DNA of 64,000 bases from a virus: the IMG/VR virus record IMGVR_UViG_3300022856_000003; one strand, 5' to 3'. Both the position numbers and the translations under genes were made by a program. Of this stretch, positions 28,415 to 39,978 are shown piece by piece (the stretch's first letter is position 1; each line of letters begins with the position of its first letter). A model generated the notes under the pieces. That model was not told the DNA's origin and made no database searches. It saw only the letters and a program-made list of their open reading frames with translations.

Positions 28415-28978
28415 ATGGGTGGCGAATGGAACCTCTACTGCGAAGCTGATCGTGATCTCCTAGCGGGGTATGGCGATGAGCTTGCCGGTATCGGCACGCC
28501 AACCGATGGGAGCCGCGATGCCGAGGGGAACATCATCCCCAAGGTCCAGTACTTCCAGCGCGACAAGAGCCAGGATTTCGATCCGACCTATCAGGAACCC
28601 ACATCCAAGGACATCTGGCGCGGCCCGTACAGGTTCCCCTGTACCGTGGAGTTCGAGGAGGCTCAAGGACACTACGACCAGGAGGTAGACGCAGAGGGCA
28701 CCGAGCGGACCTACACGGCTGAGATGGTCATCACGGTCACTCACTGGACGGCGAACGTCGTTGAGGCGCACGACCCGGCATTCAGGGCTCCACAGGAGGG
28801 TGACGTGGTCACGTTCTTTGATGGTGATCGAGCGTTCAATGTGGAGAAGGTCGAGCAGTCTGGTGTTATACTTACGAGCAACAACCACGTCGACTGGAAG
28901 CTCCAACTGCGTGGGCGTGAAGGTTTCGAGCCTGATAGACTTCTCCCGCCCAGGTTGCGACCCCATGAGGAGGACTGA
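28415..28978 (+). CDS. head-tail joining/neck protein (gp14-like)
   Basis: DPTYQE, PQEGDVV..FNVEKV; position after the gp13-like gene. Confidence 0.55.
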   Translation: MGGEWNLYCEADRDLLAGYGDELAGIGTPTDGSRDAEGNIIPKVQYFQRDKSQDFDPTYQEPTSKDIWRGPYRFPCTVEFEEAQGHYDQEVDAEGTERTYTAEMVITVTHWTANVVEAHDPAFRAPQEGDVVTFFDGDRAFNVEKVEQSGVILTSNNHVDWKLQLRGREGFEPDRLLPPRLRPHEED

Positions 28979-29460
28979 TGCGAGCACTGATTAATTCCCT
29001 AACCGAAGCGTCCAGCACTCCGAAGCCGAAGGTCATGGACTCCGCGACGAAGGCTCGTAATGCTTTGGTGAAGGCAGCTAAGGCCAATGGGTTTGGTGAC
29101 GCTGTCGCTGCTCGTGGTTACGGAGGGTCGAATCCCTACTCGGGCACTCAGGAGTTGCTTGTTGGTCTGGGGAAGAAGACGAAGGGCAGCAAGCCGTCCT
29201 TCGCGAAGCTCAAGAAAGTACTCCAGGCTGCTGGTTTCCACATCGTCAAGTCGTCCAGTGAGACCTCGACGATGGAGGAGTACAACTACAAGGAAAAGAA
29301 GATGGACGCGGTCGAGAAGGTCTACTTCTCAATCGAGGCCGACAGCCCGGATTCCAAGAGGGTCCACGTCCTCTGTCATGCTTGGCACAAGCAGTATTGG
29401 ACCATCAGGGTCTTCGGACCGAAGAAGGCCAAGCTGTCCACCATGCCCTACTACGACTGA
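28978..29460 (+). CDS. basic protein with capsid-targeting-like leader
   Basis: N-terminus MRALINSLTE. Confidence 0.65.
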   Translation: MRALINSLTEASSTPKPKVMDSATKARNALVKAAKANGFGDAVAARGYGGSNPYSGTQELLVGLGKKTKGSKPSFAKLKKVLQAAGFHIVKSSSETSTMEEYNYKEKKMDAVEKVYFSIEADSPDSKRVHVLCHAWHKQYWTIRVFGPKKAKLSTMPYYD

Positions 29461-29461
29461 G

Positions 29462-29475
29462 CGAAATCGATTTCG
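29462..29475. repeat. dispersed palindrome copy (18-bp perfect AGCGAAATCGATTTCGCT, 29460-29477)
   Basis: Immediately after a stop codon. Confidence 0.9.
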
Positions 29476-29487
29476 CTGGAGGCTTCG

Positions 29488-30591
29488 ATGCCTGATCTGA
29501 TCCCGGAAACAGTCCTGCCTGCTGATTGGGCCTCGCTGGCTTCTCGCCTGTCTCCTCTCGCTGAGGATCAGATGGGCGTGCTCACGGAAGAGCCTGCGCT
29601 CGAACCAGGCCACTACGTCGCAGTGACATCGAAGCTCGGAAGGACTGTTGCCTCTGGCTACGTCCACAGCACCGACAACGGTGTGGTCACCGTGCGGCTC
29701 GACGGGCATGGCGTCGACCAGCTCGGCTCCTTCCCGAAGGAGCTTTACCGCTTCTACAAGATCGATAAGGAAGAGTCCGACACGTTGGGTGAGTCGAGGA
29801 ACAGGTGGACAGGACGCGAGGGGAAGAAGTTCGATGTCGGGTCTGTCGTCGTCCAGGTAGATGCTCGCGGGAACGAGATTGGACCTCGCGGGTCCGTACT
29901 CGGTGTTGACGGGAAGAACCTCCTTATTGGTAAGTCTGGCCACAACCCGGCGAAGTACAAGATCTCCGATGCGAAGATGCTTCGCGTTGAGGACAACCTC
30001 GACGAGTCTAAGAAGTCGAAGAACCGTGATCTGTACAAGAAGATCATGGCGAAGAACTCCAACGGTCCCGCCATCGACAAGAGCAAGTACCCGCCCATCA
30101 AGGGCATGGAGGGTCCGTTCAAGTTCAAGAAGTCGGGCATCCTGTACTACGACCCCAAGGAGGGCCGGTACTACGACAGCAAGACCGACATCTACCTCGA
30201 CGTGAACGACCTCCCAGAGGACGACGACGACCTGGAAGGTGTCGAGTTCACCGAGGCTGCTGATGTGAATCCCACGGTCAACCTCGGATCCACGGTCGCG
30301 GACAACCCCGACAACTCCCCGACGACTGGTGCGCTGCCTGCAAAGCCTGACGCGAAGCCTCCAATGCACGAGGCGATGCAGGTCATCTATCCGTTCACGG
30401 GAAACGACATCAGGTGGACTGCGGAAATCTGGGACGACATCCAGCACTTCGGGTTCTACCGGGCGATGGCTCGTCACTCGCTCCCGGGCATGTCACAGCA
30501 GGTCATCGAGCAGCAGCTCGTCGCGAAGAAGCTCGCTCATCTCGGAGGACCATCACCCGAGTGGGTGTCTGCGGTGGGTGACCGACAGTAG
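29488..30591 (+). CDS. multi-module probable internal head (poly)protein
   Basis: Small modules separated by LAE/LTE/LGE/LDE/FTE; EGPF...LYYDPKEGRYYD module. Confidence 0.65.
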   Translation: MPDLIPETVLPADWASLASRLSPLAEDQMGVLTEEPALEPGHYVAVTSKLGRTVASGYVHSTDNGVVTVRLDGHGVDQLGSFPKELYRFYKIDKEESDTLGESRNRWTGREGKKFDVGSVVVQVDARGNEIGPRGSVLGVDGKNLLIGKSGHNPAKYKISDAKMLRVEDNLDESKKSKNRDLYKKIMAKNSNGPAIDKSKYPPIKGMEGPFKFKKSGILYYDPKEGRYYDSKTDIYLDVNDLPEDDDDLEGVEFTEAADVNPTVNLGSTVADNPDNSPTTGALPAKPDAKPPMHEAMQVIYPFTGNDIRWTAEIWDDIQHFGFYRAMARHSLPGMSQQVIEQQLVAKKLAHLGGPSPEWVSAVGDRQ

Positions 30592-30602
30592 GAGTCGTTT
30601 CG

Positions 30603-38203: not shown

Positions 38204-38704
38204 ATGGCGCGTACCGAGTCATCTGATCCTCTGCACGGCTTCCGCTTCCACGTTCGTACTGAGACGGAGGCGGGGCAGTTCTCCGACTCTGAGTTGGGCG
38301 AGGCTGGCTTCCAGTCCTGCACGCTTCCCGAGCTATCGACGGAGTCGGTGGAGTACCGCGAGGGCCACCTCACGTACACGAAGAAGTTCCCTGGAGTCCC
38401 CACGGTCTCGAACCTCACGCTGATGCGTGGAGTGACGAAGACGGACACCAGCTTCTACGACTGGGTCCTCACGGCCATCGAGGGTGGTGAGTACCGCACG
38501 AACCTGACCGTCTACCACTGGCATCGCGATGGGAAGACCAGCGGCCAGATCGCGGACCTCAACGCGGCGCGGAAGTACAACTGCTACGAGTGCTTCCCGA
38601 GTCGTTGCAAGCCCGCTGCGGACCTCGACGCCACCTCGAGTGAGGTGTCGCTGGCCGAGGTCGATGTCGAGGTCGAGTACTTCGAGATCGAAGACGCAAC
38701 CTGA
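38204..38704 (+). CDS. gp19: tail tube protein (T4 gp19/Afp1-like)
   Basis: DPLHGFRFHV, GFQSC, VEYREG, KFPG...NLTLMRG, FYDW. Confidence 0.9.
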   Translation: MARTESSDPLHGFRFHVRTETEAGQFSDSELGEAGFQSCTLPELSTESVEYREGHLTYTKKFPGVPTVSNLTLMRGVTKTDTSFYDWVLTAIEGGEYRTNLTVYHWHRDGKTSGQIADLNAARKYNCYECFPSRCKPAADLDATSSEVSLAEVDVEVEYFEIEDAT

Positions 38705-38721
38705 GATCCTGGGAGTAGTTG

Positions 38722-39279
38722 ATGCACTCTCTCGTCCACCGGGTGAAGACCCTGACGGAGCACAAGTTCCACTTCCTCGGAGGTGGAGCTGTCAGGATCA
38801 CTCGCGCCAGGCTGTCTGCTCACCTGAGCGAGTCTGGACTCGAGTCCGCTGCATTCTTGGACGAAGGCAGCTTGCTTCCTCGATCATTGGCCGAAGACCT
38901 GGCCGAGGATGGTCGAGTGTCAGGCATCGTCCGCTCTGAGCCCTCTGACGACCCTGCGATGGCACTGGTGAAGCGAGCCTTCGCCTATGCCCGTAAGGAG
39001 GCTCGTGGGTGGTCTCAGGCTGAGTTAATCGCCGAGTTCGCAACGGACTACCCGGATGATTACGAGATACGTCTCCGCAAGGCCGTCTCACACATCGCCC
39101 AGTCCTACATCAACGAGGCTGTGGTCAAGACAGCCTATGAGGCGTGTCCCGCGAAGCCTTCGATGGAATGGGCTCTCCCTACCAAAAGCGTGTTCGTCGA
39201 CATCTTGGCTGACATCGTCGAAGAGCGGATGAGCAAGGGGATCTCCAAGTACAAGAGGGGTCTCGACGACGCCGTCTGA
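38722..39279 (+). CDS. hypothetical protein with divergent leader (MHSLVHRVKTLTE)
   Basis: GGAG SD; 185 aa. Confidence 0.6.
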   Translation: MHSLVHRVKTLTEHKFHFLGGGAVRITRARLSAHLSESGLESAAFLDEGSLLPRSLAEDLAEDGRVSGIVRSEPSDDPAMALVKRAFAYARKEARGWSQAELIAEFATDYPDDYEIRLRKAVSHIAQSYINEAVVKTAYEACPAKPSMEWALPTKSVFVDILADIVEERMSKGISKYKRGLDDAV

Positions 39280-39280
39280 G

Positions 39281-39294
39281 CGAAATCGATTTCT
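39281..39294. repeat. dispersed palindrome copy immediately after a stop codon
   Basis: CGAAATCGATTTCT. Confidence 0.88.
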
Positions 39295-39309
39295 AGCCGA
39301 GGTGGCGTA

Positions 39310-39978
39310 GTGCGTTCATTCATTCAAGATCTTCGCGAAGAGGCCGGTGCCATGCACAAGGTCTTCTGGCACTTCCCACTCAGTGGTGAAGCGTTGAAGG
39401 ACTTCGTCCTTCTGCGTGGGCTCGTCAAGGACTTCCTCGGTGAGGATCTGAGCATCCCGACCCTCGACCCCCACCTGACCATCCTCTACATGGGTGAGGT
39501 CTACGAAGGTGACCTGCCCGCGATCATGGAGGCAGGGGCTAGTGCTCTCGCTTCTATGACTGGTCGGCCGTACTTCGAGGGTAGCGAGGTGAGCTTCTTC
39601 CCCATCACCGACAGGAGTGAGGGGAACCAGCCCATCGTCCTCAAGGTCAACGGTGGAGTTGAGGACATCCACAACCGACTGTTGCGTGCGCTCGCCCCCT
39701 GGGTGACGAAGGCGCAGTTTCTCGACTTCCAGATGCACATCACCTTCGGCTACCTGATTGGTCGAAAGCTCACGGCTGAGGAGTACTTCCAGCTCCGAAA
39801 GATGGGACCGCCCCACGACATCAATGGCCCGATCCAGAATGTGCGACTCACTGCTGGAAAGGAGTTCGAGAAGGACTTCCACCTGGGTCCGGTGCCCAAA
39901 AAGAGAGCGCGAAGAGATGGCGAGCGAGCCTATCCAACAGGCGTCAGCGCACTGAGCACGCCGCCATCCAATGGCTAG
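39310..39978 (+). CDS. 2H phosphoesterase (LigT/Acb1-like) with capsid-targeting-like leader
   Basis: Two HxT motifs (PHLTILY, MHITFGY) about 90 aa apart; N-terminus MRSFIQDLREE. Confidence 0.8.
   Translation: MRSFIQDLREEAGAMHKVFWHFPLSGEALKDFVLLRGLVKDFLGEDLSIPTLDPHLTILYMGEVYEGDLPAIMEAGASALASMTGRPYFEGSEVSFFPITDRSEGNQPIVLKVNGGVEDIHNRLLRALAPWVTKAQFLDFQMHITFGYLIGRKLTAEEYFQLRKMGPPHDINGPIQNVRLTAGKEFEKDFHLGPVPKKRARRDGERAYPTGVSALSTPPSNG

Follow-up and report, generated by a model that had tools for sequence, protein, structure and literature searches.

We analyzed a 64,000-nucleotide (nt) stretch of phage DNA (IMG/VR record IMGVR_UViG_3300022856_000003; hereafter the window), which has a G+C content of 59% and in which all credible genes lie on the plus strand. 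Four unrelated late genes of the window open with a ten-residue leader of the form M-[RK]-x-[LF]-I-x-x-[LI]-x-E, and six do so when variants are counted. The four are a basic orphan (28978..29460; leader MRALINSLTE, nt 28978-29007), a type IB topoisomerase (TopIB; 30603..31814; MRGLILNITE, nt 30603-30632), a second basic orphan (31996..32331; MKALISDLEE, nt 31996-32025), and a 2H phosphoesterase (39310..39978; MRSFIQDLRE, nt 39310-39339). The variants open a small basic protein (31811..31999; MKALIEALSP) and a protein of 185 amino acids (aa) (38722..39279), whose 13-residue leader is MHSLVHRVKTLTE. A first-pass annotation, made from the letters and a list of open reading frames (ORFs), had reported these six N termini, and when the gene starts were re-read all six were exactly as claimed. 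It had also placed the genes among neck and tail genes, and they are indeed interspersed with the head-tail adaptor (26526), the tail sheath (34836), and two tube paralogs (38204 and 39998), inside a late structural block in which the gene layout indicates translational coupling.

The leader is confined to gene starts. In a six-frame translation of the 64 kb, the strict pattern [RK]-x-[LF]-I-x-x-[LI]-x-E is matched four times, and all four matches directly follow the ATG or GTG of a coding plus-strand ORF, at 28978, 30603, 31996, and 39310. Loosening the pattern at every position gave 10 six-frame matches, among which the same four were the only ones at starts, and a pattern for the 13-residue form gave 16, with 38722 the only one at a real gene start. 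At the nucleotide level, the degenerate pattern RTG MRN NNN YTN ATH NNN NNN HTN NNN GAR, from a motif defined post hoc from these same genes, was matched four times in the window, against a mean of 0.01 and a maximum of one in 100 dinucleotide-preserving shuffles; two other huge phages, likewise uncultured, gave no matches over 1.08 Mb. The census of leaders covers the 64-kb window. Each leader start has a Shine–Dalgarno-like site or overlaps the preceding stop codon: 28978 is an ATG with GGAGG, 30603 an ATG with AGGAG, 39310 a GTG with GAGGT, and 31996 an ATG that overlaps the stop of the gene before it. Mis-called starts were rejected on the strength of these ribosome sites and of the N termini of orthologs. 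The upstream GTG of 39310 is supported because its ortholog P0018 lacks a Met where the downstream alternative would start and begins with the leader-like MLKLIAALE.

It is the peptide that is conserved. About half of the 30 bases are common to the leaders' DNA, identity at third-codon positions is about 3 in 10, and Arg2 is encoded variously by CGA, AGG, and CGT. Because the third-codon positions and the Arg2 codons diverge, selection acts on the leader peptide and not on the DNA, and the same codon-level divergence rules out a DNA repeat, an RNA element, or recent copying. After removal of the first 13 residues, the six proteins showed no significant mutual similarity by BLASTP (best E value 0.066), which bears out the earlier statement that the mature parts are unrelated and rules out paralogy. 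Four of the products (28978, 30603, 31811, and 31996) have isoelectric points (pI) of 9.6-10.1 in a largely acidic proteome, and the DNA-associated internal proteins of phage T4 are likewise basic.

The best characterized of the leader-bearing proteins is the topoisomerase (403 aa; pI 9.7; PF01028, E 4.6e-10), whose closest solved structure is the Deinococcus TopIB (PDB 2f4q, E 3.9e-9). It consists of the leader, a disordered linker, a β-hairpin (GHWVTF/GRPIFI), the catalytic domain, an L-x-E at residues 338-340, and an acidic C-terminal tail. In an AlphaFold 2 (AF2) model with a predicted local distance difference test (pLDDT) score of 75.7, the leader forms an isolated helix (residues 2-10), the GHWVTF/GRPIFI segment folds as the hairpin, and the C-terminal helices and acidic tail come at the end; the catalytic domain is modeled confidently, with low confidence at residues 1-20 (leader and linker) and 341-359. 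The protein was aligned with eight metagenomic orthologs at 37-50% identity (alignment A1), and the catalytic pentad R147, K194, R258, N309, and Y318 is invariant in all nine sequences.

The leader is retained in these orthologs. Seven of the eight begin with a short segment that has hydrophobic residues at or near positions 4, 5, and 8 and Glu at one of residues 9-14, and in six of the seven the segment contains [LI]-x-E. The N termini are MRGLVKALYE, MYKLVVALNE, MRALVASLQE, MLGLIDALLE, MLSARLKQLIE, VRELVSLIE (which lies inside an over-long gene call), and, as a looser case, MLALIESLALAHTE, with H-T-E instead of [LI]-x-E. The linker that separates them from the first conserved block (GRWVTI..GRPVFI) ranges from about 0 to 25 residues and is free to vary in length and sequence. 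Since the linker and the residues between the key positions drift among orthologs, the leader behaves as a signal plus spacer.

A second potential processing site lies at the other end of the enzyme. The L-x-E at 338-340 (window 31614-31622) comes directly after the catalytic domain, its Glu340 is invariant in the nine sequences, and it is followed by the low-confidence segment and then by a conserved acidic tail that runs to 31814. We speculate that the topoisomerase could lose this C-terminal piece at L-x-E340, as T4 Alt does; from Alt a C-terminal piece is also removed (PMC9026906). A full-text literature search returned no paper describing a phage TopIB in virions. In the uncultured 485-kb phage LR745208.1, a 508-aa protein (L003:5518-7044) without the leader combines a TopIB domain, situated in the C-terminal half, with another domain, and its gene lies between those of the portal (L003:3379-5073) and the head-maturation protease (L003:9832-11256). 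This is a hint that an association of TopIB with head modules exists in another, unrelated phage lineage as well.

The 2H phosphoesterase (222 aa, GTG start) was recognized as a member of this superfamily (LigT, 2′-5′ RNA ligase-like) by its two HxT motifs, PHLTILY and MHITFGY. Both histidine motifs (H55-L-T and H143-I-T) are kept in P0018, the only ortholog found, which carries PF13563 and is encoded on a 121-kb contig, matching in length the longest contig recorded for the topoisomerase ortholog P0006. The 39310 protein itself gives weak matches to PF13563 and PF02834, both below the cutoffs, and its AF2 model is poor (pLDDT 54); the top Foldseek matches of that model are mostly 2H enzymes. 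The obvious candidates for what it acts in are RNA-end healing and the destruction of nucleotide signals.

Pfam and PHROG searches gave no assignable function for the other four leader-bearing proteins. In the 28978 product (160 aa, pI 9.8), which had no match of any kind in either database and whose homolog search returned itself alone, the leader is followed by a linker rich in Ser, Thr, Pro, and Lys. The 31811 product (62 aa, pI 9.6) has a positive coding score and a start that overlaps the topoisomerase stop codon; its residues 1-8 fit the pattern, and L-R-E (19-21) and L-V-E (22-24) occur further down. The 31996 product (111 aa, pI 10.1) had one other match among 1.84 billion representatives, a weak one (E 4.8e-6). 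The 38722 leader is hydrophobic at positions 4, 5, and 8 and has L-T-E at residues 11-13. ESM Atlas look-ups for 28978 and 38722 produced weak leads, one of them a barnase/EndoU-like fold at a template modeling (TM) score of 0.45. Between two of the leader genes lies a gene for a 367-aa protein (29488-30591) that starts MPDLIPET, near the MLLIPET of the T4 core protein gp68, and its I-P-E fits the protease motif; judged by this start, it may be another head-internal protein with a shorter propeptide.

As the first-pass annotation had stated, the phage encodes a homolog of gp21, the T4 prohead protease. The gene (21638..23794; PHROG 207, E 5.8e-42; PF03420, E 5.4e-13) specifies an S77/gp21-like domain (aa 20-195), 33% identical to T4 gp21 and sharing its GELxHP and GVSSRGxGS blocks, and then a helical extension of about 520 aa. 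Its N-terminal L-Q-E8 parallels L-I-E9 of T4 gp21, and of its 21 [LI]xE sites most are in the C-terminal extension, which may act as a scaffold. We presume that this protease is the reader and cutter of the leader. It is followed by a major capsid protein of the gp23 family (23850..25328; PF07068, E 3.9e-66), which aligns with T4 gp23 through the propeptide (KW..LLEG, EN...) and thus has a homologous N-terminal propeptide; its candidate cleavage sites are L-C-E49 and L-N-E60. Upstream of the protease, an acidic head-module protein of 323 aa (20427..21398) has L-T-E at residues 11-13 and 11 [LI]xE sites altogether. From its position and composition it is a candidate scaffold or core protein and the presumed docking partner of the leader, and the many [LI]xE sites in this protein and in the protease extension fit scaffold and core proteins that are degraded.

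Of 67 proteins, 18 have an [LI]-x-E with Glu at residues 8-14, where 5.2 would be expected, and the 18 include all five products of the consecutive head genes from portal to capsid protein (portal, 19759, 20427, protease, and capsid protein). Short N-terminal segments that end in [LI]-x-E are likewise found on T4 structural and core proteins: in the T4 record gp24 begins MAKINELLRE, gp22 MLKEQLIAE, gp68 MLLIPE, and gp21 MNEPQLLIE. These are structural or core proteins, in contrast to the leader-bearing proteins of the window. The portal begins MSWIRDRINDIRE (17856-17894), with I-R-E at residues 11-13. This site may be unused, because the T4 portal is not processed (PMC5694885), whereas giant-phage portals are. 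N termini with a single [LI]-x-E that lack hydrophobic residues at positions 4 and 5 were not counted as members; among them is MSTTLSTIAE (56992-57021), the start of a 652-aa protein encoded downstream of the baseplate genes, probably a protein of the tail or baseplate region, which has I-A-E at residues 8-10 like the T4 signal described below.

The closest known counterpart of the leader is the T4 capsid-targeting sequence (CTS), a 10-residue N-terminal tag on the otherwise unrelated proteins IPII/IPIII, IPI, and Alt that is removed by gp21. The first-pass annotation had described it correctly: ipII and ipIII begin MKTYQEFIAE in the T4 record, and processing depends on residues 8 and 10 (PMC9026906). 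In T4 the N-terminal 10 residues of IPIII are enough to direct packaging; by mutagenesis, targeting depends mainly on residues 4 and 7, and Asp at position 10 blocks cutting and leaves targeting unaffected (PMC9026906). Propeptides in T4 measure 10-19 residues, CTS-like leaders are found in other T-even phages on basic proteins that differ from those of T4, and the T4 internal proteins that carry the CTS are ejected with the DNA (PMC9026906). The principle is established for T4, and its relatives are believed to share it (PMC3012670, PMC9026906).

The leader described here shares with the CTS Met1, a basic residue 2, a hydrophobic residue 4 (here L or F), L/I at residue 8 (P3), and Glu at residue 10 (P1). 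The last two are exact in 28978, 30603, 31996, and 39310 and are moved to residues 11-13 in 38722. Like T4, the phage encodes a protease of the gp21 family and a capsid protein of the gp23 family, and most of the putative cargo is basic and some of it enzymatic, as Alt is. The two sequences are identical at only about 3 of 10 residues, and the conserved extra hydrophobic residue is Ile5 rather than residue 7, so that the hydrophobic face (M1, 4, 5, and 8) resembles the T4 face (M1, 4, 7, and 8) without being the same. Further differences from T4 are the C-terminal extension of the protease, the position of the cargo genes in the neck and tail block, and the inclusion of a TopIB and a 2H phosphoesterase among the cargo. 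The T4 CTS has been shown to load green fluorescent protein, nucleases, and other proteins, whereas for the present leader such loading is a prediction.

Two other systems bear comparison. In phiKZ, 201phi2-1, and SPN3US, many proteins that are head-internal or ejected, among them enzymes such as the virion RNA polymerase, are substrates of a prohead protease related to that of T4 (gp175/gp245); paralogs in these giant phages share conserved N termini, and the protease motif is S/A/G-x-E (PMC5694885). Their propeptides are mostly longer than 100 residues and have a small P3 residue, whereas the leaders here are 10-13 residues long with L/I at P3, as in T4. Among eukaryotic viruses, the poxviruses encapsidate a type IB topoisomerase. 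The phage enzyme is another viral TopIB predicted to travel in the particle; it differs in being closest to a bacterial TopIB (2f4q), with Asn in the pentad, and poxviruses have no loading by leader plus protease.

The late block begins with the terminase (15840) and the portal (17856), followed by two unassigned head-module genes (19759 and 20427) between portal and protease, the adaptor, sheath, and tube genes, and, further on, the baseplate genes. A ribonucleotide reductase (40801) and then a DNA methyltransferase, neither with a leader, interrupt the tail genes at 40801-43548, between a tube paralog and the baseplate genes. The apparent gap between 31996 and 32684 is occupied by a gene for a 110-aa Cys-rich protein (32355-32687; start MADGYTFICATCPKLH) without a leader; its stop overlaps the next ATG, and it is easily overlooked because the long ORF of that frame begins far upstream. 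A palindrome, CGAAATCGATTTCG, occurs at 29462, 39281, 49461, 54416, and 1070, in each case 10-25 nt upstream of a start (29488, 39310, 49485, 54441, and 1097, respectively). In-frame copies at 23677 and 31784, with the reading E-I-D-F-A, are seen as GEIDFAEE in the protease extension and ETDFAEV at the topoisomerase C terminus; to judge from these, the DNA palindrome and an acidic C-terminal peptide may overlap in some genes. For most of the neighboring genes there was no match in Pfam or PHROG, and a search of the window for Rfam RNA families found none. No nucleotide relative of the window was detected among cultured phages, and the nearest match to the capsid protein came from an uncultured 595-kb phage (35% identity). 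No relatives emerged when IMG/VR was scanned with alignment A1 or with the topoisomerase or protease, and a single metagenome scan returned only a 1.4-kb fragment.

Taken with its 13-residue and longer variants, the leader is probably a T4-type capsid-targeting and cleavage sequence. The first-pass annotation had read it as a modular packaging tag that loads enzymes into the head for ejection with the DNA before expression of any phage gene; with the leader kept in orthologs, the tag is still the best-supported reading, though not a demonstrated one. The leader would form a short amphipathic helix with its hydrophobic face on M1, 4, 5, and 8, and this helix would dock unrelated proteins onto the scaffold or core during prohead assembly. 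The gp21-type protease (21638) would then remove it after the Glu of [LI]-x-E, so that the mature proteins would stay in the head alongside the DNA and probably exit at infection. The predicted mature cargo comprises four basic proteins, including the topoisomerase, together with the 2H phosphoesterase and the 185-aa protein. Ejection into the host would be a further step, beyond capsid targeting.

Several observations weigh against this interpretation. Where T4 targeting uses residues 4 and 7 (Tyr4 and Phe7), residue 7 of the leader is polar (S, N, or D), and since the extra hydrophobic residue is at position 5, the docking surface would differ from that of T4. The T4 gp23 cleavage site L-T-E65 aligns with F-T-K in the capsid protein, so that the specificity assigned to the protease is an inferred one. 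No gp22-like scaffold was found by sequence, the 20427 protein and the protease extension both being dissimilar to T4 gp22. Not every family member conforms: 31811 has Pro in place of Glu10; the 38722 and 39310 products are near pI 6 rather than basic; among the topoisomerase orthologs, P0007 carries H-T-E and P0006, as annotated, has no leader; and in the 2H ortholog P0018 the leader motif is A-L-E instead of [LI]-x-E. Genes that clearly do not encode virion proteins (the ribonucleotide reductase and the methyltransferase) lie in the structural block as well, so gene position by itself is weak evidence. The phage is, moreover, uncultured.

In one alternative, the leader would be an amphipathic docking helix that is never cleaved and whose partner lies outside the prohead; a component of the tail or neck, a chaperone, a membrane, and a phage remodeling ATPase are examples of such a partner. 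The leader genes lie among neck and tail genes and do not adjoin the head genes, and the T4 targeting position 7 is not conserved, both of which speak for this explanation. It leaves unexplained, however, the invariant Glu two residues past L/I at the exact T4 processing positions, as well as the flexible linker, the gp21-type protease, and the N-terminal [LI]-x-E on head proteins, and we consider it rather unlikely. We also think it unlikely, and a little more so, that the leader is a prohead-protease propeptide on head-internal or assembly proteins (core, scaffold-associated, or DNA-organizing) that are not delivered as effectors. All the head-module proteins of the window share an N-terminal [LI]-x-E, T4 gp22, gp24, gp68, and gp21 have similar N termini yet are not effectors, and the basic proteins could merely neutralize packaged DNA (PMC3012670). 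Against this, the topoisomerase and the 2H phosphoesterase are enzymes with intact catalytic residues and no evident role in assembly, and the precedent of the CTS-bearing internal proteins of T4 is one of ejection (PMC9026906).

That the resemblance has no function, and reflects chance, the remnant of duplicated 5′ gene ends, or wrongly called starts, is very improbable. The post hoc definition of the motif speaks for it, as does the adjacency of 31811 and 31996, both of which start MKALI; it is contradicted by the excess of four matches over the 0.01 expected in shuffles, by the lack of DNA-level similarity among the leaders, by the good ribosome site or translational coupling at each start, and by retention of the leader in orthologs at 37-50% identity while neighboring residues drift.

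A more far-reaching version of the capsid-targeting interpretation is one that we put forward tentatively, as possible rather than probable. A T4-like leader would bring two enzymes, a TopIB and a 2H phosphoesterase acting on cyclic nucleotides or RNA ends, into the capsid of a tailed phage, which would deliver both with its DNA. The topoisomerase, which may lose a C-terminal propeptide at L-x-E340, would give the poxvirus virion enzyme its first counterpart in a phage, and the 2H phosphoesterase would be a pre-made counter to defenses that use nucleotide signaling or cut tRNA. The cargo principle itself is already known from T4; what is particular to this phage is the divergent tag consensus and the predicted virion TopIB and 2H enzyme. 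If the leader does act as a capsid-targeting sequence, the T4 principle would extend to a lineage with a different tag sequence and a capsid protein only about one-third identical to that of T4, and the virion cargo of uncultured phages could be predicted from sequence by means of the tag. The short leader could also provide a second, orthogonal packaging tag for engineered protein delivery by phage heads, and the topoisomerase and the 2H phosphoesterase would be factors of the first minute of infection.

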